From a virus (lineage: Duplodnaviria; Heunggongvirae; Uroviricota; Caudoviricetes): a stretch of 45,125 bases of DNA. Position 1 is the first letter of the stretch. Every line of letters starts with the position of its first letter. The stretch lies in the IMG/VR virus record IMGVR_UViG_2703718832_000003; one strand, given 5' to 3'. The notes beneath the pieces are model-generated. The model ran no database searches, was not told where the DNA came from, and saw nothing but the letters and a program-made list of their open reading frames with translations. The position numbers were made by a program, and so were the translations under genes. Below, piece by piece: positions 18,649 through 40,735 of the stretch.

Positions 18649-18894
18649 TGGAGGGTAAGAAAATGCACGGGTAGAACGGACAGACCGCAGTCGAAAGGCA
18701 CTGCAGCAGTCATGATGCTGCCCCGAGTCGCGTAATGGCGAGCCTGTGTAGTGATGGGTAAGGGTTCATAGATCAAAATAAGCTCCGGTAAAGCAGCGTG
18801 AATGCCAGATACGCACCGGTTATCAGCGGCGATGACGCGACAGCACCTCAAGGGCATGAGCGTGGCCACTCCGGGAAGTGGCAAAGAATTTATA

Positions 18895-18920
18895 GCCTCG
18901 CTTATGCGGGGCTTTTCTAT
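18895..18920 (+). terminator. Intrinsic terminator (GCCTCGC-TTAT-GCGGGGC-TTTT), copy 1
   Basis: 7-bp stem with one G-U pair, 4-nt loop, T-run; near-identical copy at 21000-21025. Confidence 0.5.
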
Positions 18921-19031: not shown

Positions 19032-19310
19032 ATGACCAGAATGAGCACCATTTACAGCAGACTTTCATATGGAACAGGCACCACGCTGACCGGCTGCGGT
19101 GTATCAGCGAAGGCATATGCCGAAACAGCAAAAACAGCAAAAGAGGTGTCCTGGATGTTGGCCGACAGAATTGCAGGGTTAAGCCTGAGCGACTGGGCAA
19201 TTATTGTCGGTATCGCATGCACGGTAATCACCTGTGCAGTGAACTGGTATTTCCGCTGGAAAGAACGGGAGGATCGGCGCAATGGCTATGTCTCTAAAGC
19301 TGAAGAATAA
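19032..19310 (+). CDS. Holin
   Basis: 92-aa ORF with GGAGGTG RBS; hydrophobic TM segment LSDWAIIVGIACTVITCAVNWYF and charged C-terminus; first gene of the lysis cassette. Confidence 0.6.
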   Translation: MTRMSTIYSRLSYGTGTTLTGCGVSAKAYAETAKTAKEVSWMLADRIAGLSLSDWAIIVGIACTVITCAVNWYFRWKEREDRRNGYVSKAEE

Positions 19311-19830
19311 ATTGAGCGCAGCGGTCGTTGGTTTGATTCTTGCCGGGGCTTCCGCACCCGTGATTCTCGATCAGTTTCTGGATGAGAAAGAGGGTAACAG
19401 CTTGACAGCATATCGCGACGGCGGCGGACTCTGGACCATTTGCCGTGGTGCAACAATGGTTGATGGCAAGCCAGTAGTACAGGGCATGAAGCTGTCAGCT
19501 GAGAAATGCGCCCAGGTAAACGCCATTGAACGCGACAAGGCGCTGGCGTGGGTTGACCGAAATATCAAAGTACCACTGACCGAACCACAGAAAGCGGGTA
19601 TCGCTTCTTTCTGCCCGTATAACATCGGCCCCGGTAAATGCTTCCCATCGACCTTCTATAAGCGCATCAACGCAGGTGACCGCATCGGTGCATGCGAGGC
19701 AATCCGCTGGTGGATTAAAGACGGTGGCCGTGATTGTCGTCTAACCAAAGGCCAGAAGAATGGCTGCTATGGTCAGGTTGAGCGACGGGACCAGGAAAGC
19801 GCGCTGGCGTGCTGGGGGTTAGACCAATGA
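19282..19830 (+). CDS. SAR endolysin (phage lysozyme with N-terminal signal-anchor-release domain)
   Basis: 182-aa ORF; N-terminal weakly hydrophobic Gly/Ala-rich segment LSAAVVGLILAGASAPV followed by a lysozyme-like domain. Confidence 0.75.
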   Translation: MAMSLKLKNKLSAAVVGLILAGASAPVILDQFLDEKEGNSLTAYRDGGGLWTICRGATMVDGKPVVQGMKLSAEKCAQVNAIERDKALAWVDRNIKVPLTEPQKAGIASFCPYNIGPGKCFPSTFYKRINAGDRIGACEAIRWWIKDGGRDCRLTKGQKNGCYGQVERRDQESALACWGLDQ

Positions 19831-20342
19831 AAATTAATCCGGGTCTTATAGGCGTTGTTGTTATTGCTGTCCTTTCGGTCGCTCTCGCTAAGAGTTGCTC
19901 CAACGCCAGTCGCCTTCAGAGCGATAACGACGTTCTGCGAAGTGACAACTCTATGCAGGGGCAGGTGATCGCCACCCAGGCATTCAACTTCAATCGATTC
20001 AATCAGGTTGCAGAACATGCCAACAGGCTAAACTCCCTGATCGACACCAGCACCGAAGAAACTGTAATCGAATACCGGGAGATTCTCCGCCGTGAAAAAA
20101 CCTGTGATCTGCCTGTTCCTGCTGACATTGCTGGTGGGCTGCTCGAATACGCGTACCGTTTACGTTCCAGCGCAATGCACGCCGATACCGACGGACCTGA
20201 CGCAGCCGATGATAGTACCGCTGCCGCCGGCTCAATAACGTACTGCCAGGCTGTACTCTGGATTAAGCCGCTGCTGGCCGTGATTGAAAAGGGCAATAAC
20301 AATTTCGCTGGAATTCGTCAAATAGAGAGCGAGCGTCAATAG
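19827..20342 (+). CDS. Rz-like inner-membrane spanin (i-spanin)
   Basis: ATG at 19827 in frame with track ORF 19809-20342; N-terminal TM helix LIGVVVIAVLSVALA, coiled-coil body; Rz1 embedded in the +1 frame. Confidence 0.65.
   Translation: MKINPGLIGVVVIAVLSVALAKSCSNASRLQSDNDVLRSDNSMQGQVIATQAFNFNRFNQVAEHANRLNSLIDTSTEETVIEYREILRREKTCDLPVPADIAGGLLEYAYRLRSSAMHADTDGPDAADDSTAAAGSITYCQAVLWIKPLLAVIEKGNNNFAGIRQIESERQ
20092..20238 (+). CDS. Rz1-like outer-membrane lipoprotein spanin (o-spanin), embedded in Rz
   Basis: Not in the track (48 aa). GTG start with GGGAG RBS; VKKPVICLFLLTLLVGCSNTRTVYVPAQCTPIPTDLTQPMIVPLPPAQ has a lipobox (LLVGC) and Pro-rich mature region. Confidence 0.6.
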   Translation: MKKPVICLFLLTLLVGCSNTRTVYVPAQCTPIPTDLTQPMIVPLPPAQ

Positions 20343-20343
20343 T

Positions 20344-20392
20344 CTTTATCCCTAGCAAGGGATAAAGCAACCATTATCCCCGCTAAGGGATA
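20344..20392. promoter_or_regulatory. Two tandem palindromes sharing TTATCCC-N4-GGGATAA
   Basis: Perfect 10-bp inverted repeat CTTTATCCCT-AGCA-AGGGATAAAG at 20344-20367 and a second imperfect copy TTATCCCC-GCTA-AGGGATA at 20374-20392; no T-run after either. Confidence 0.35.
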
Positions 20393-20449
20393 GGCGTTAC
20401 AGCAGACACTCACCTAATGCCTGTTGCCATTCAGCCAAGGAGCCAGCCT

Positions 20450-20695
20450 ATGAAAAAAGTTAAAGTTACAATTGCTCACCTTGAAGAGCACTACGAGGGT
20501 ATTGTTCGAGCCGCAAACGTCACATTCCAGGTTATTCAGAATGAAAGTGTGATAGTGAAGGATTCTTTATCCGGTAAAGCTTCCCATCCCTTCACTAAAA
20601 TTTACGCTGTCGATGTTGATGAATCAGCTGTACATGTGATGCATGATCGGCCTGATTTGAGCTGGTTAACAATTACAGCAGAGCTTGTTGAATAG
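20450..20695 (+). CDS. Hypothetical small protein (moron candidate)
   Basis: ATG at 20450 with AAGGAG RBS, in frame with track ORF 20417-20695; no recognisable motif. Confidence 0.35.
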   Translation: MKKVKVTIAHLEEHYEGIVRAANVTFQVIQNESVIVKDSLSGKASHPFTKIYAVDVDESAVHVMHDRPDLSWLTITAELVE

Positions 20696-20754
20696 TATTT
20701 ATTTTGCAGCTTCAATTGCTTAGCATTATCTCCGGGTACCCAAAGGAGATAAAT

Positions 20755-20976
20755 ATGTTTGTTGCAGAAGGCTTGAAGCCTGACCTTGATAATATAGGTT
20801 GGGTTATGGGGTGGGGGGTTGTAAGGAATGCCCCGTGGCATTTAGTCGGTGTTTACGCCACCAAAGATGTGGCCGAAACTAAGGCAGCCTCACTAGGTGA
20901 GGGCTATGAAGCCCATTATGGCTCACATCGGTTAGGCTCTGACGACTTCATCCACCACAACTTCACGCGCAGTTAA
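20755..20976 (+). CDS. Hypothetical small protein (moron candidate)
   Basis: ATG at 20755 with AAAGGAG RBS, in frame with track ORF 20704-20976; followed by terminator copy 2. Confidence 0.35.
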   Translation: MFVAEGLKPDLDNIGWVMGWGVVRNAPWHLVGVYATKDVAETKAASLGEGYEAHYGSHRLGSDDFIHHNFTRS

Positions 20977-20999
20977 CAAAAGAAGTTGTTCGATATTTA

Positions 21000-21025
21000 G
21001 CCTCGCTTATGCGGGGCTTTTTTAT
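21000..21025 (+). terminator. Intrinsic terminator (GCCTCGC-TTAT-GCGGGGC-TTTTTT), copy 2
   Basis: Same stem-loop sequence as 18895-18920, with a longer T-run. Confidence 0.55.
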
Positions 21026-21136
21026 GCGCATCGCACGCGCACACCGTAGAAAGTCTTTCAGTTGTGAGCCTGGGCAAACCGTTAACTTTCGGCGGCTTTG
21101 CTGTGCGACAGGCTCACGTCTAAAAGGAAATAAATC

Positions 21137-21604
21137 ATGGGTCATAAAATTATCACGTTGTCCGGCGCGGCGACGGATGTTCTGTATGCGCTGTTTTTCC
21201 GTGGCGCGCTTCAGTCTGGTGATCTGCCAGCCAAATCTGGTGCTGCTGAGCTTCTAGAGCTGGGATTCGCTGAAACACGCCATACCGCGACGGAGTATCA
21301 AAAGGAAAATTATTACACCTTCCTGACCGCTGAAGGGCAGGAGTTCGCCATTAAGCACCTGGTGAATACGCGCTTTGGTGTTCCTGCTGGTGGTTATATT
21401 GGTGGCTCTGTAAATATTCAGTTTGGCCGGATAGAGAACGACCCACGAAAAGGCTATGCCATCAATGTTGGCATCTGTCCCGAAATTAAGACCGGCGTGA
21501 AGCTATCCCCTGAAATGGTAAAAGCGATCTCAGATGTTGTGTCCGAGGAACTGAAGAAGAGTCTTCGGCCAGGTGGCACGATATGGTCAGCGCTGTCGCG
21601 ATGA
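21137..21604 (+). CDS. Hypothetical protein (moron candidate upstream of cos)
   Basis: 155-aa ORF with AAAGGA RBS; preceded by a 9-bp inverted repeat GTGAGCCTG...CAGGCTCAC (21064-21117); no recognisable motif. Confidence 0.45.
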   Translation: MGHKIITLSGAATDVLYALFFRGALQSGDLPAKSGAAELLELGFAETRHTATEYQKENYYTFLTAEGQEFAIKHLVNTRFGVPAGGYIGGSVNIQFGRIENDPRKGYAINVGICPEIKTGVKLSPEMVKAISDVVSEELKKSLRPGGTIWSALSR

Positions 21605-21705
21605 ATGGACGTTTAGACGTCCAAATGGGTGCGAATCAAGTCGCATTCCAGCAAATGATAATCATTATCATTTGCGGGTCCTTTCCGGCGATCCGCCTTG
21701 TTACG

Positions 21706-21717
21706 GGGCGGCGTCCG
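21706..21717. other. cosN (cohesive-end nicking site), with cosB-like sequence extending to about 21890
   Basis: GTTACG|GGGCGGCGTCCG followed by CTATTTATGAAAATTTTC and TTTCCGTTCTTCTTC closely parallels the lambda cos region; lies about 190 bp upstream of Nu1. Confidence 0.6.
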
Positions 21718-21892
21718 CGCAGATTCTCGCTATTTATGAAAATTTTCTGGTTTATGCCATTTCCGTTCTTCTTCTTGTTTACTCATTGTTTTTGTTAAAA
21801 ACGTCCTCTCTCCAGAAAGGAAATGCTGAGCAAGGAAAACGGAAGTTTACCGTTGATTGTTTCCTTTCTCTGTTTTTTGCCAGGAGTAAGCC

Positions 21893-22438
21893 ATGGAGGT
21901 TAACAAAAAACGCTTATCCGAAATTTTCGGGGTAAGCGTCCGAACGATTCAGAACTGGCAGGAGCAAGGTATGCCGGTTGTCCGCGGTGGTGGCAAAGGT
22001 AATGAGGTTCTCTTTGAATCTGCTGCTGCAATCGAATGGTACAGTGCGCGCGATGCAGCTATAGAAAATGAAAAGTTGCGGAAGGAAGTTGAAGATCTCC
22101 GTATCGCTTCTGAGTCCGATCTTCAACCTGGCACGATTGAATATGAGCGACACCGACTTACGCGAGCTCAGGCTGACGCTCAGGAATTAAAAAATGCAAA
22201 AGAGTCCGCTGAAGTGGTGGAGACCGCATTCTGCACGTTCGTGCTGTCGCGGGTAGCCGGAGAAATCGCCAGCATTCTCGATGGAATACCTCTGTCGGTT
22301 CAGCGGCGCTTCCCGGAGCTGGAGAACCGACATATTGATTTCCTCAAGAAGGACATCATTAAGGCCATGAACAAGGCAGCTGCGCTGGATGAAATGATAC
22401 CGGGGTTGCTGAGTGAATATATCGAACAGTCAGGTTAA
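21893..22438 (+). CDS. nu1: Terminase small subunit (lambda Nu1-like)
   Basis: 181-aa protein MEVNKKRLSEIFGVSVRTIQNWQEQGMPV... nearly collinear with lambda Nu1. Confidence 0.9.
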   Translation: MEVNKKRLSEIFGVSVRTIQNWQEQGMPVVRGGGKGNEVLFESAAAIEWYSARDAAIENEKLRKEVEDLRIASESDLQPGTIEYERHRLTRAQADAQELKNAKESAEVVETAFCTFVLSRVAGEIASILDGIPLSVQRRFPELENRHIDFLKKDIIKAMNKAAALDEMIPGLLSEYIEQSG

Positions 22439-32225: not shown

Positions 32226-34719
32226 TCTGGTCGTTAACCTTGACGTTAACTCGACGAAATTTAACGAGCAGCTTAACTACGTCAAAAAAGAATTAAAGCA
32301 GACTGGCAGCGCGGCGAACGACGAAGCGCTACGGATCCAGCAGTCCTTTAGCCGCCAGGAGAACGCCGCGCGCAAGGCGGGTATTTCAATAGGCCAGTAT
32401 AACGCAGCAATGCGTATGCTTCCGGCGCAGTTTACCGATATAGCTACGCAGCTAGCGGGCGGGCAGAACCCATGGCTGATTCTGCTTCAGCAGGGCGGTC
32501 AGGTTAAGGACTCCTTTGGCGGGATAATACCAACATTCAGGGCCTTACTGGGTACGATCTCACCGTTGATGGTCGGCATCGGTGCACTGTCCGCCGCAAC
32601 GGGTGCGCTGTTCTATGCCTGGTACCAGGGCTCATCCACACTATCTGACTTCAACAAAACGCTGGTACTGTCGGGGAACACGGCCGGATTGACTGCCGAT
32701 CGTATGTTGGCGCTGGCACGAAACGGCCAGGCAGCGGGGCTGACGTTCAATCAGACCAGCGAAGCCCTGAGCGAGCTTATCAACGCGGGGGTGGGCGCGA
32801 GTTCGCGCTTTGATGAAATGAGCCAGGCGGTGGCGCGATTTACTGATGCCTCCGGCGTGCCGGTGGAAAAAGTCGCAGCCGCATACGGCAAGCTCACTAC
32901 TGACCCTACATCAGGCCTGATCGCGATGGCTCAGCAGTTCCACAACGTTACGGCCGAACAGATTGCCCATGTGGCACAGCTGCAGCGTGCCGGTGATGAG
33001 GCTGGCGCACTGCAGGCGGCTAATCAGGCTGCTACTGCCGGATTCAACGATCAGACCAAGGCCATCCGCGACAATATGGGGACGATTGAGTCTTCAGCGG
33101 ATTCCCTGAAGCGTGCCTTCAAGTCGATGTGGGATGCTGCACTTGATATTGGCAGACCTGACACCGCCCAGGAGATGGTGGCAAAAGCCCAGGCCGCGTT
33201 TAAAAAGGCTGATGAAATCTGGAATCTGCGTAAAGGCGATCATTATGTGAATGATGAGGCCCGCGCCCGGTTCTGGAATGATCGTGAAACGGCCAGACTG
33301 GCACTGGATATGGCGCAGCAGCAGGCTGGTATTGCCAAAGCGAACGAAGAGAATGCTTCCCGTGAAGCGGTCGCAGAGTCCGATCGTCAGAAATATGCCG
33401 CGCAGGCTCAGGCCAACTATGCCAAAACCCAAACTGCCCTTGAGAAATACACGGCCAGGCAGAGCGAGCTCAACAAGGCGCTGAAAGAGGGGCGGATCCT
33501 CCAGGCTGACTACAACATCAACCTGGCTGCCGCGAAAAAAGAGTACGAAGACACCCTTAAAAAGCCGAAGAAGACCCCGGCAATCAGAACCCCCGCAGGT
33601 GCCCGTGCCACCGATACGGCCAGTGCCCAGACGCTGGAGCTACAGACACAGCTGCGCACCCTGCAGGAGCATAAGAGCATCAATGACACCATCAGCCAGC
33701 AGCGTCAGGAGCTGTGGCGTCAGCAGTCCCGCTTTACGGTTCTGGAAGAGGCCGCGAAGACCCGAACGCTTTCTGCTGAGGAAAAATCCCTGCTGGCCAG
33801 TAAAAGTGAGGTGCTTTCCCGTGCGGAGCTGAATGCGAAGCTCGGCGATCAGATAGTGGCGCAGGAGCGGCTTAATCGCCTGCAGGATACGTCCCAAAAA
33901 TACGTCACGCAGATCGGCGAGAAAACCCGAGCCCTTGCGGAAAGTGCTGGTATGAGCAGTCGTGCAGCACAACGTCGCAATGAAGAGGCCCAGCTTCTTC
34001 AGGGCTGGAAAAATGGTGGTGGTTCGGAGAACGATGCTGGTTATCAGAATGAGCTGCAGGCGCTGCAGGCGTATTACGCCGAGCAGGATAAGCTGCGGGA
34101 CGACTGGCAGTCCGGAGCCAAATCCGCATGGGCAGATTATGTTGATTCTGCTTCAGATGCTTATGGCCAGATGAAGTCGGCTGCCACCAGTGCGTTTGAT
34201 GGCATCGGGCAAAATATGGCTGACATGCTGACGCGCGGAAAGGCTGACTGGGCTGACTTCACCCGCTCCACGCTCTCCATGCTGACACAGATCCTGCTGA
34301 AACAGGCGATGGTAGGCCTGGTGGATTCAGCGACAACCGCGCTGGGATTTGCAGGTGGCGGTTATACCGGTTCAGGCGGGAAATATGAACCTGCAGGTGT
34401 CGTTCACCGTGGTGAATTTGTTTTCACCAAAGAGGCTACCAGCCGGATCGGCGTCGGCAATCTTTACCGGATGATGAAAGGGTATGCCACGGGTGGGTAT
34501 GTCGGGGGCGGTGGTACAGGCCCGGCTGCAGCACCTTTCGGTGTCAGTGTATATGCCCCGGTGACGGTCGAGAATGCTTCCGGTAACGCACAGCAGCAAA
34601 ACGACGGAGACAGGCTGGGTAAGGCGTATCAGCAGGTGATTAACAAATCTGTCAACGATGGTATCGCCAGGGCAATCCAGCCCGGTGGGCTTATCTGGAA
34701 TGCGAACAATCGCAGGTAA
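32203..34719 (+). CDS. H: Tail tape measure protein H
   Basis: 838-aa ORF, Ala/Gln-rich helical, in the canonical position; C-terminal region lambda H-like. Confidence 0.9.
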   Translation: MAQTAVGDLVVNLDVNSTKFNEQLNYVKKELKQTGSAANDEALRIQQSFSRQENAARKAGISIGQYNAAMRMLPAQFTDIATQLAGGQNPWLILLQQGGQVKDSFGGIIPTFRALLGTISPLMVGIGALSAATGALFYAWYQGSSTLSDFNKTLVLSGNTAGLTADRMLALARNGQAAGLTFNQTSEALSELINAGVGASSRFDEMSQAVARFTDASGVPVEKVAAAYGKLTTDPTSGLIAMAQQFHNVTAEQIAHVAQLQRAGDEAGALQAANQAATAGFNDQTKAIRDNMGTIESSADSLKRAFKSMWDAALDIGRPDTAQEMVAKAQAAFKKADEIWNLRKGDHYVNDEARARFWNDRETARLALDMAQQQAGIAKANEENASREAVAESDRQKYAAQAQANYAKTQTALEKYTARQSELNKALKEGRILQADYNINLAAAKKEYEDTLKKPKKTPAIRTPAGARATDTASAQTLELQTQLRTLQEHKSINDTISQQRQELWRQQSRFTVLEEAAKTRTLSAEEKSLLASKSEVLSRAELNAKLGDQIVAQERLNRLQDTSQKYVTQIGEKTRALAESAGMSSRAAQRRNEEAQLLQGWKNGGGSENDAGYQNELQALQAYYAEQDKLRDDWQSGAKSAWADYVDSASDAYGQMKSAATSAFDGIGQNMADMLTRGKADWADFTRSTLSMLTQILLKQAMVGLVDSATTALGFAGGGYTGSGGKYEPAGVVHRGEFVFTKEATSRIGVGNLYRMMKGYATGGYVGGGGTGPAAAPFGVSVYAPVTVENASGNAQQQNDGDRLGKAYQQVINKSVNDGIARAIQPGGLIWNANNRR

Positions 34720-40100: not shown

Positions 40101-40735
40101 GCCAGGCGGTCGCGCGCGCGCTGGTCACGCTGGATGCAGAAGCTGGTGGCAATATCTCTAACTCAACGGACCTGACAGAAACTCTTGCTGATTTCACACA
40201 GGCATCGGCGACAAAAATTAACACCCTGACTGTTAAATCTGGCGAAAACAGCGCCGCGATAAACGTCAACGCACAGGCTATCGCAGATGTAAACGGTAAC
40301 CTCAGTGCCATGTACAACATCAAGGTGGGCGTAACCAGTAACGGGCAGTATTACGCTGCCGGGATGGGGATTGGGGTTCAGAATACACCCTCCGGCATGC
40401 AGTCACAGGTAATATTCCTGGCCGACCGATTTGCTGTTACCACTGCTGCCGGAAACAGCGTGGCGTTACCATTTGTGATCCAGAATGGTCAGACGTTCAT
40501 CAGGGCCAGCTTCATTCAGGACGGTACCATTGAGAACGCCAAAATCGGTAACTATATCCAGTCGAATAACTATGTGGCTGGCTCTGCAGGCTGGAAACTT
40601 GATAAGGGGGGCACCTGGGAAAACTACGGCAGCGACGGTCAGGGAGCAAGAAAATCCACCAATGTCACTGACAGTATCAGGGATTCAAATGGCGTGCTCC
40701 GCGTGCAAATCGGCAAACTTACAGGGGTGTTTTGA
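37187..40735 (+). CDS. J: Host specificity protein J (central tail fiber / tip attachment protein)
   Basis: 1182-aa ORF in the canonical position, lambda J-like N-terminal two-thirds. Confidence 0.9.
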   Translation: MATSTPIRGRKGGSSSSRTPTEQPDDLQSVAKAKILVALGEGEFAGQLTAKDIYLDGTPLENADGSQNFSGVAWEFRPGTQAQKYIQGIPGTENEISVGTEVSSATAWTHTFTNTQLSAIRLRLKWPSLFKQEDDGDLVGYSINYAIDLQTDGGTWQTVLNTSVTGKTTSGYERSHRIDLPQAGSTWTVRLRKLTADANSAKIGDTMTLQSYTEVIDAKLRYPNTALLYIEFDSSQFNGSIPQISCEPRGRVIRVPDTYDPETRTYSGTWTGAFKWAWTDNPAWIFYDLVVSDRFGLGDRLTAANIDKWTLYQVAQYCDQLVPDGKGGSGTEPRYTCNVYVQERNDAYTVLRDFAAIFRGMTYWGGNQIVALADMPRDVDYSYTRANVVDGRFTYSGSTTKNRYTTALVSWSDPGNAYADAMEPVFEQELVARFGTNQLEMTAIGCTRQSEANRKGRWGIQTNNKDRIVSFDVGLDGNIPQPGYIIAVADELLSGKVMGGRISAVNGRVITLDRDSAAVAGSRLMVNLPSGASQSRTIQSVNGRAVTVTTAYSETPAVESVWIVESDELYAQQYRVISVSDNNDGTFSITGAFHDPDKYARIDTGAIVDQRPISVIPPGNQSPPANIAISSFSVVQQNISVETMRVSWDQAKNAIAYEAQWRRNDGNWVNVPRSSTTSFDVPGIYAGRYLVRVRAINAAEISSGWGYSEEKTLTGKVGNPPKPVGFIASENVVFGIELNWGFPANTEDTLKTEIQYSLTGTEDDAMLLADVPYPQRKYQQMGLKAGQIFWYRAQLVDRSGNESGYTEWVRGQASIDVSDITDVILEEIKDSDTFKDLIENAVDSNEKIAGMANDIKQANDELEQQAKDIAKNAQDVGKVQTSVNELSSTVGNVSSSLSQLEQTVATADTALGQRIDNISVSMDGMTGGVKNSAIAIIQNGLAQVVSRRSQTATNGGNSASIDRVDTTIADASQAVARALVTLDAEAGGNISNSTDLTETLADFTQASATKINTLTVKSGENSAAINVNAQAIADVNGNLSAMYNIKVGVTSNGQYYAAGMGIGVQNTPSGMQSQVIFLADRFAVTTAAGNSVALPFVIQNGQTFIRASFIQDGTIENAKIGNYIQSNNYVAGSAGWKLDKGGTWENYGSDGQGARKSTNVTDSIRDSNGVLRVQIGKLTGVF

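Follow-up and report, generated by a model that had tools for sequence, protein, structure and literature searches.

The stretch of DNA analyzed here (the window) comprises 45,125 nucleotides of a virus of the class Caudoviricetes (IMG/VR record IMGVR_UViG_2703718832_000003) and corresponds to the lambdoid coliphage mEp237 (Enterobacteria phage mEp237, NC_019704; 100% identity over the region). Our subject is the cargo interval at positions 20344 through 21604, which lies in the late region downstream of the lysis genes (holin at 19032, endolysin at 19282, and Rz, which extends to 20342) and upstream of the cohesive-end site cos and Nu1 (21893); alignment of the left ends of lambda, phi80, and 434 places the start of the cosN cohesive end at ~21706. 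A preliminary description, made from the letters of the window, had presented the interval as a single insertion with its own operator-like sites. In our reading, to which we assign a probability of roughly 0.6 as a whole, the interval is instead a mosaic of three separately exchangeable modules, namely a pair of tandem palindromes, the genes gp60 and gp61, and a structured leader RNA with gp62; all three would be served by late transcription, and the leader would control access to the Shine-Dalgarno (SD) sequence of gp62.

The three genes between the Rz stop and cos are present as first described, on the + strand and each behind a ribosome-binding site (RBS) of the AGGA/GGAG type: gp60 (20450-20695, 81 residues), gp61 (20755-20976, 73 residues), and gp62 (21137-21604, 155 residues). 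All are annotated "hypothetical protein," and the earlier statement that they have no recognizable function holds, in that the three proteins matched no family in Pfam, NCBIfam, or PADLOC and a PHROGs search returned only families of "unknown function." The first two genes do end at an intrinsic terminator, AGCCTCGC-TTAT-GCGGGGCT followed by a T-run (20999-21024, + strand; hairpin 20999-21018 with an 8-bp stem and 6 G-C pairs). This terminator ends the gp60-gp61 module and usually stands next to the leader on its 5′ side; the terminator sequence, with a conserved U·G pair, accompanies the leader in many phages, P22 included. The hairpin sequence recurs at 18888-18920, upstream of the holin gene (AGCCTCGCTTATGCGGGGCT, 91% over 33 nt), where it is probably a Q-controlled late terminator. 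From Rz to cos or the terminase genes, phi80, HK620, HK106, mEp390, CobraSix, and E. coli prophages hold differing genes; by this comparison of gene content, the Rz-cos interval is a cargo hotspot.

A pseudoknotted leader RNA upstream of gp62

The leader of gp62 (21023-21139, + strand) measures ~115 nt from its first helix, P1, to the start codon at 21137 and comprises five helices and two pseudoknots. P1 is a short hairpin, GCGC-AUCGCAC-GCGC (21026-21040), whose GCGU/ACGC variants stay paired. A purine-rich linker connects it to the anti-SD sequence UCUUU (21054-21058), which pairs with the SD sequence AAAGG (21123-21127) in helix P2, together with AG (21060-21061) and CU (21120-21121). P3 (UGUGAGCCUG, 21063-21072, with CAGGCUCACG, 21109-21118), P4 (21073-21078 with 21097-21102), and P5 (21079-21081 with 21093-21095) follow, and an 11-nt apical loop caps the structure. 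The first pseudoknot, PK1, joins UCGCAC in the P1 loop (21031-21036) to GUGCGA (21103-21108); the second, PK2, joins GAAAGU in the linker (21049-21054) to ACUUUC in the apical loop (21085-21090). The predicted fold has an energy of -55.6 kcal/mol (z = -3.97 against shuffles). A 9-bp inverted repeat that the preliminary description had noticed in this leader (GTGAGCCTG/CAGGCTCAC, 21064-21072 and 21109-21117) is present, and forms part of helix P3 rather than a simple operator or hairpin.

A covariance model (R1) built from 20 sequences of the short subtype scores the window at 130.7 bits (E = 6e-32) and gives 63 further matches in the fetched loci. In an alignment of 63 elements from these loci, 94.5% of the cells at paired positions are paired, compared with 26 to 48% when the partners are slid, and double changes occur in 28 of the 36 pairs. 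The covariation score is 0.228; shuffles give 0.089 ± 0.005, none of 500 attaining the observed score, and slid controls give at most 0.059. PK1 lies outside the model, yet is 99.2% paired, with compensatory changes in five of its six pairs; an alignment-free table gives the types UCGCAC/GUGCGA, UCUCAC/GUGAGA, UCGCAU/AUGCGA, UCACAC/GUGUGA, and UCGUAC/GUACGA. G·U intermediates are found in PK1 as well, which indicates that the + strand RNA is the selected molecule. PK2 exists in more than 10 complementary sequence types, including CGAGAG:CUCUCG, CACAGAA:UUCUGUG, CCCGAG:CUCGGG, CCCAGAG:CUCUGGG, CGAUA:UAUCG, GAUAA:UUAUC, and CUCAGAA:UUCUGAG, and a Watson-Crick run of at least 5 is present in 79% of members versus 25% with shuffled linkers.

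The remaining helices vary in the same manner. In P2, CCUUU:AAAGG changes to CCUA:UAGG, and one member closes a C·A mismatch to C:G; in P3, GAGCCUG:CAGGCUC is replaced by ACCCUUG:CAAGGU (subtype D) or by GCCUUUG:CAAAGGU (P22), so that in these two subtypes whole helices are swapped and the architecture is kept. With RNAalifold on a plain MAFFT alignment, misalignment of the subtypes limited recovery to P1, P3, and part of P4, a difficulty that the covariance-model alignment resolved. Judged from these patterns of substitution, the leader is a conserved pseudoknotted RNA, with covariation support for all helices and both pseudoknots. A search of Rfam 15 (4227 families) at relaxed thresholds assigned it to no family; the window gave only chance-level terminator matches (E ≥ 0.5), and the leaders of HK620, phi80, subtype D, and other subtypes had no match. 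In subtype D (loci L277 and L269 and many IMG/VR loci), the 3′ strand of P3, CAAGGUUC, can pair with ACCCUUG, as in the family fold, or alternatively with GAACCUU, which contains the anti-SD; from the sequence, the latter pairing is a possible conformation that would free the SD.

BLAST of 20990-21140 retrieved 55 phage records at 68 to 98% identity, and IMG/VR scans with two independent patterns each found at least 120 leader loci. All leaders lie on the coding strand, and in every inspected locus (17 retrieved) the leader is just 5′ of an open reading frame (ORF). Among the matches listed, an ATG follows the 3′ strand of P3 (GACAGGCUC) by ~9 to 27 nt in 101 of 105 elements, and the cargo of 101 elements comprises 41 KilA-N genes, 34 members of the gp62 family, 9 cases of a 485-aa glycosyltransferase, and a mixed remainder. 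Individual examples are rha and x171.28 in phi80, hkbK (KilA-N) in HK620, gp64 in HK106, gp54 (glycosyltransferase) in mEp390, and Rha in CobraSix. In the phi80 locus there are two leaders (210-346 and 1804-1923), of which the one before rha is of the long subtype (210-346, 78.8 bits); four further loci (L017, L058, L080, and L115) likewise have two copies of different subtypes before successive cargo genes. The presence of two leaders in one phage indicates that the cassette is used repeatedly within one late operon. The possibility that the leader is a small RNA gene was considered and rejected, as it lacks its own terminator and borders directly on an ORF at its 3′ end.

Leaders were found in temperate phages of Escherichia, Salmonella, Klebsiella, Enterobacter, Cronobacter, and Citrobacter, and by BLAST in 259 of 5426 complete E. 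coli genomes (~5%), among them laboratory strains with phi80 remnants and Nissle 1917; none of 30 E. coli records spread down the BLAST ranking carries an RNA annotation at the leader. This taxonomic breadth refers to the phage, IMG/VR, and E. coli collections; a scan of genome contigs with the P3 pattern gave, among the matches listed, only chance palindromes from unrelated bacteria. Leaders 70 to 95% identical to the E. coli phage versions were also seen in Aeromonas phage AsXd-1, Elizabethkingia phage EKP1, and Actinobacillus phage vB_Apl-pPE4. These three phages carry enterobacterial-type lysis cassettes too, and their host assignment or isolate purity may be questionable.

The P22 subtype of the leader is found in 67 phage records, Stx2-converting phages included. 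R1 matches the P22 leader at 20.8 bits (E = 1.8e-4, filters off), and inspection reveals P1 (GCGC-ACCGCA-GCGC), PK1 (CCGCA:UGCGG), PK2 (CCACCGA:UCGGUGG), P3, and P4. An 89-nt RNA, P22F, accumulates during P22 infection, with its 3′ end 6 nt before the rha start codon (PMC13397905); it was listed, from a read cluster and an Mfold hairpin only, as a small noncoding RNA with "no known function" (PMC13397905, Noncoding RNA 2026). We find that the P22F sequence equals the P2b-P5 hairpin plus the SD of the P22 leader, its 5′ end lying within the 5′ strand of P2. Leader-type RNA, as represented by P22F, therefore exists in infected cells; with this exception, the leader family is absent from the literature covered by a full-text search of PMC and bioRxiv. 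In phage Stx2a_WGPS8 (870-995 of the locus), a P22-type leader precedes a KilA-N gene, seemingly without a recognizable P1, and may be a truncated or variant form.

Separable modules between Rz and cos

By Megablast, the whole interval is present only in mEp237, one fragment of Phi06, and three E. coli prophages, and other phages share no more than parts of it. mEp213 and mEp043 have only 21012-21689 in common with the window (terminator/leader and gp62, 98.5% identity), their homology beginning exactly at the terminator/leader (21012), while HK639 shares only the noncoding 21008-21131, and its leader is part of the tail operon, flanked by the major tail protein gene and a further gene. Such coincidence of homology breakpoints with the leader edges would suit a leader that acts as DNA, as a boundary or linker promoting homologous recombination between modules, with the RNA fold incidental; so would the greater conservation of the leader than of the coding sequence that follows it and the placement of the same cassette before unrelated genes. 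A linker needs identity, yet P2, P3, P4, PK1, and PK2 have been replaced by other complementary sequences; moreover, the G·U intermediates fit one strand only, and the RNA accumulates in infected cells. We consider this explanation very improbable.

The palindromes directly follow the Rz stop and consist of two copies of TATCCC-N6-GGGATA (20347-20364 and 20375-20392) in a 28-bp register. The first is contained in a perfect 10-bp stem, CTTTATCCCT/AGGGATAAAG, with the loop AGCA (20344-20367); the second copy spans 20374-20392, 28 bp away start to start. The preliminary description had given them as TTATCCC-N4-GGGATAA; there are indeed two tandem copies, in which six bases separate the heptamers and the second ends in GGGATAG. 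TTATCCC-N6-GGGATA is confined to this site in 45 kb (shuffles expect 0.00). An IMG/VR scan with the pattern TATCCC-N6-GGGATA-N8-12-TATCCC matched at least 120 loci, and the counts that follow for this element apply among the matches listed. The element is intergenic in 120 of 121 copies; the spacer between the palindromes, allowed to vary from 8 to 12 nt, measures 10 nt in 99 of the 121 and 9 nt in 20 more; and the arm free of ascertainment reads GGGATA in 79 of 121. At the seventh positions the bases mostly do not complement each other (C..A in site 1, T..G in site 2), which makes the whole 46-bp element an inverted repeat of an 18-bp unit. There is no T-run at the palindromes and the arms are conserved; conservation of sequence rather than covariation, together with the fixed spacing and the two-fold symmetry, favors a site in DNA that is bound by protein, and this is, from sequence, the most likely nature of the 46-bp dyad element.

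The commonest context of the element is Rz/Rz1, then the palindromes, then the next gene, which is gp60-like in 24 of 120 loci, an HNH endonuclease in 12, and a protein with the gp62 N-domain in 10; gp60 is thus the commonest downstream gene. The palindromes also precede unrelated genes, and even a terminator plus leader. In all, the 120 loci hold gp60 in 24 cases, gp61 in 10, the gp62 N-domain in 10, and the leader in 17. In Klebsiella prophages, whose gp60 homologues are 38% identical, this tandem pair stands immediately before the RBS of these homologues, and among other gp60 loci compared there is one weak palindrome copy in Leclercia and none in two others. The element is accordingly tied to the ends of lysis cassettes and not to the gene trio, and its distribution is similarly wide to that of the leader RNA. 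Persistence of the genes without the palindromes had been named at the outset as an observation that would speak against a joint cluster; some gp60 loci indeed do without them, and the Klebsiella gp60 loci have them. A block at 20396-20430, upstream of the gp60 RBS (TTACAGCAGRCAYTCAC..RTGCCTG), is kept across genera and contains a short inverted repeat; its Yokenella version includes an extended -10-like TGTGATAAT that is degenerate in mEp237.

gp60 has 19 homologue clusters, all from Enterobacterales prophages, and gp61 has 58. A gp60 homologue directly follows the spanin genes in Citrobacter, Leclercia, Yokenella, Rahnella, and Klebsiella prophages, and in these loci, except that of Citrobacter youngae, a gp61 homologue begins ~59 to 62 nt after it (59 nt in Leclercia and Yokenella). 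This recurrent adjacency marks the two, which form a module low in GC, as a conserved gene pair. They travel jointly, whereas the palindromes, the leader, and gp62 can each be found in the absence of the others, and so the co-occurrence counts bear out only the gp60-gp61 part of the trio that had been proposed as one cluster. The RBS of gp60 is AAGGAG (20437-20442). A search of PDB sequence profiles gave no match for gp60, and for gp61, a compact beta-beta-alpha-beta domain, the sole match was the SPOR domain of DamX at E = 0.37.

A consensus scan for sigma-70-like promoters over 19800-22000 found none, compared with 2.2 expected by chance; a promoter of this type inside the leader or upstream of gp60 was considered unlikely from the scan and from inspection of the alignments. 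All cargo genes are co-oriented with the late operon, and this orientation, taken with the lack of a detected promoter, points to Q-modified late transcription, by which all three modules would probably be transcribed in a terminator-resistant manner. The palindromes had been proposed to be regulator sites rather than terminators. Their arms, spacing, and symmetry and the missing T-run agree with that proposal; the lack of a promoter and the tie to lysis-cassette ends do not. The claim of an independently regulated insertion in a hotspot divides in the same way, the hotspot being evident from the differing genes of relatives and the independent regulation finding no support in the promoter scan or the gene orientation.

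The definition of a moron is reportedly that of Juhala et al. from 2000; lambda bor and lom and HK97 gp15 are examples. The cargo interval resembles the morons of lambdoid phages in having extra late-region genes between conserved neighbors, in a slot that holds different genes in related phages. It also resembles them in composition, as regards gp60 (GC 0.40-0.44 versus 0.52-0.55 for the lysis genes) and not gp62 (0.51), and in a 3′ terminator, which gp60-gp61 possess; what follows gp62 is a hairpin that lacks a T-run (TGGACGT-TTAG-ACGTCCA, 21609-21626, directly 3′ of its stop). It differs in that no promoter of its own was detected, that it consists of three separable modules, and that an RNA leader is what defines the gp62 module; the label fails because the defining promoter was not found in the consensus scan. 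A single moron, with a dimeric regulator on the palindromes, a promoter for gp60-gp61, the inverted repeat as operator of gp62, and products for defense, anti-defense, or conversion, would be in keeping with the conserved arms, fixed spacing, and dyad symmetry of the palindromes, their abutment on the gp60 RBS in Klebsiella, the foreign composition of gp60 (GC 0.40), the terminator that closes gp60-gp61, and the use of a known cargo slot. It sits poorly with the absence of promoter-like hexamers, with palindromes before many unrelated genes and gp60 loci that lack them, with an inverted repeat that is an RNA helix showing G·U-tolerant covariation, and with the empty PADLOC search; we regard it as unlikely.

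As to the proposed defense, anti-defense, or conversion role, no connection of the three genes with defense emerged, and the gp62 family instead has segments in common with tail-tip proteins. This family, with 458 detected homologues, includes phi80 ORF x171.28 and N15 gp59-like proteins, and gp62 is its minimal member. Its N-domain (residues 1 through 81) is strongly conserved, with about half of the positions invariant or nearly so, and is ~80 to 98% identical in many homologues; the middle of the family is hypervariable, and the C-terminal motif LxPGGxIW recurs. The AlphaFold model has an overall predicted local distance difference test (pLDDT) score of 59 and ~57 to 79 for the N-domain (residues 1 through 76). 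Foldseek matches the N-domain best to the MarR family, weakly (E = 4.6e-3 to 5e-2; template modeling score ~0.4) and with no Pfam match, so the model weakly suggests a winged-helix-like domain resembling the MarR type. PF09327 (Phage_Tail_Tip) is detected in 17 of 44 gp62 homologues (best E = 8.7e-11) and not in gp62 itself; the PF09327 segment of one relative matches the mEp237 J gene at 40292-40504 (E = 2.5e-8). At its C-terminal end, gp62 has the motif LRPGGTIWSALSR (21494-21601), which resembles the extreme C terminus of the tape-measure protein, ..IQPGGLIWNANNRR (34606-34713). These similarities suggest a family built from tail-tip modules and point away from defense, toward some connection of gp62 with the tail tip or the machinery of DNA injection. 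With the phi80 x171.28 and N15 gp59 proteins, gp62 shares the 81 N-terminal residues, the C-terminal PGGxIW motif, and the gene place before cos; it differs in being the shortest and in lacking the J-like PF09327 middle segment.

PGAP names gp62 relatives "Fur-regulated protein" or "phage tail tip fiber protein." A full-text search of PMC and bioRxiv found no source for the former name, and in phi80 the "Fur-regulated" label belongs to a different small ORF, x171.8. A near-perfect Fur-box-like palindrome, AAATGATAATCATTATCATTT, is present at 21651-21675, ~30 bp upstream of cosQ/cosN. It departs from the 19-bp Fur consensus at 2 positions; chance predicts 0 such sites. Many lambdoid matches to the cos region start exactly at this palindrome, which identifies it as a conserved cos-proximal sequence.

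Proposed control of the gp62 start and relation to known systems

The leader appears, on the modeled structures, to hide the gp62 RBS. In a thermodynamic model without pseudoknots, the median probability that the SD is unpaired is 0.10 across 131 leaders, compared with 0.43 for 25 other mEp237 genes. P2 through P5 would form a long irregular hairpin in which the anti-SD UCUUU pairs with the gp62 SD, and the two pseudoknots would lock this fold, one tying the P1 loop to the internal-loop GUGCGA and the other the linker to the apical loop. The folded leader would thereby occlude the RBS and keep translation of the cargo off, or throttled, by default. Expression would then require an opening or cutting event, such as the binding of a protein or ligand to the fold or processing of the long helix by a nuclease. 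Read most simply, the model makes the leader a translational element that throttles its often toxic cargo or leaves it off by default.

The cargo of other leaders is relevant here. The phi80 annotation states that rha inhibits DNA synthesis in hosts deficient in integration host factor (IHF), and Henthorn and Friedman are said to have reported in 1995 that Rha expression is harmful in IHF-deficient hosts. Both phi80 rha and P22 rha stand behind a leader, which suggests that leader-borne genes need tight control. A link between IHF and the leader RNA would be speculation; inspection of the leader sequences revealed no conserved IHF consensus.

Several points weigh against the overall reading of separable late-transcribed modules with a leader that occludes the SD. 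The promoter scan used the sigma-70 consensus only, and a weak or activator-dependent promoter may have escaped it. The palindromes could act as two RNA hairpins instead of as a site in DNA. In P22-type leaders the SD is just 3′ of P2, not inside it, so that occlusion there may block the ribosome landing site rather than pair the SD. Finally, the pseudoknots and invariant unpaired bases exceed what an inhibitory hairpin needs and could serve ligand sensing, catalysis, or nuclease resistance.

This last point bears on two further explanations. Two pseudoknots together with invariant unpaired bases suggest that the fold is specifically recognized by a protein, a small ligand, or a nuclease. The leader may belong to a new effector-sensing class of RNA, whether riboswitch-like, protein-sensing, or self-processing, by which temperate enterobacterial phages such as P22, phi80, HK620, and Stx2-converting phages would gate translation of potentially toxic accessory genes (KilA-N, Rha, gp62-like, glycosyltransferase) late in infection; it would serve as a portable terminator-plus-leader cassette that travels between phages along with its cargo. 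We put this forward as a tentative extension, with the odds against it. A role in RNA processing or stability, as a site for RNase III or RNase E, a nuclease-resistant fold, or a self-cleaving ribozyme, is unlikely. The stack from P2 to P5 amounts to an interrupted helix of ~26 bp, which matches phage RNase III sites in size, for instance those in T7 and in the lambda N leader, and a double-pseudoknot architecture is typical of small ribozymes. The accumulation of P22F as a discrete 89-nt fragment, with its 3′ end between SD and AUG, keeps processing alive as a rival or as an additional mechanism. Against it, there is no similarity to ribozymes or processing motifs in Rfam, and the P22F ends are not the 2-nt staggered pair of RNase III. 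Processing is also compatible with translational control, since cutting would decide whether the SD stays on the ORF.

Phage cargo genes are usually assumed to be under their own promoters or late read-through, and the leader adds a portable structured RNA cassette that stands before diverse accessory genes. If it does control translation, it would offer a testable handle on how phages restrain KilA-N and Rha proteins and would bear on the rha/IHF puzzle; it would also open a new class of structured RNA to work on structure and effectors and supply a practical marker for cargo genes.

Among the closest known counterparts is P22F. The P22 leader occupies the same place as that of mEp237 (after Rz and a terminator, 5′ of rha/ORF201, on the same strand) and shares its architecture of P1, PK1, PK2, and P2 through P5; the mEp237 leader is of another sequence subtype, and gp62, unlike the products of phi80 rha and P22 ORF201, is not a Rha or KilA-N protein. 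The report on P22F (PMC13397905) does not recognize P1, the pseudoknots, the family, or the connection with the SD. Among leaders that sequester the SD, such as preQ1-II, SAM-II, ribosomal-protein leaders, and RNA thermometers, the likeness lies in a covarying 5′ fold, stabilized by pseudoknots, that includes the downstream RBS. The mEp237-type leader differs from these in having a putative effector only, functionally diverse cargo, and no Rfam match. Occlusion of an RBS by a structured leader is a mechanism of a known kind, and the RNA family is new.

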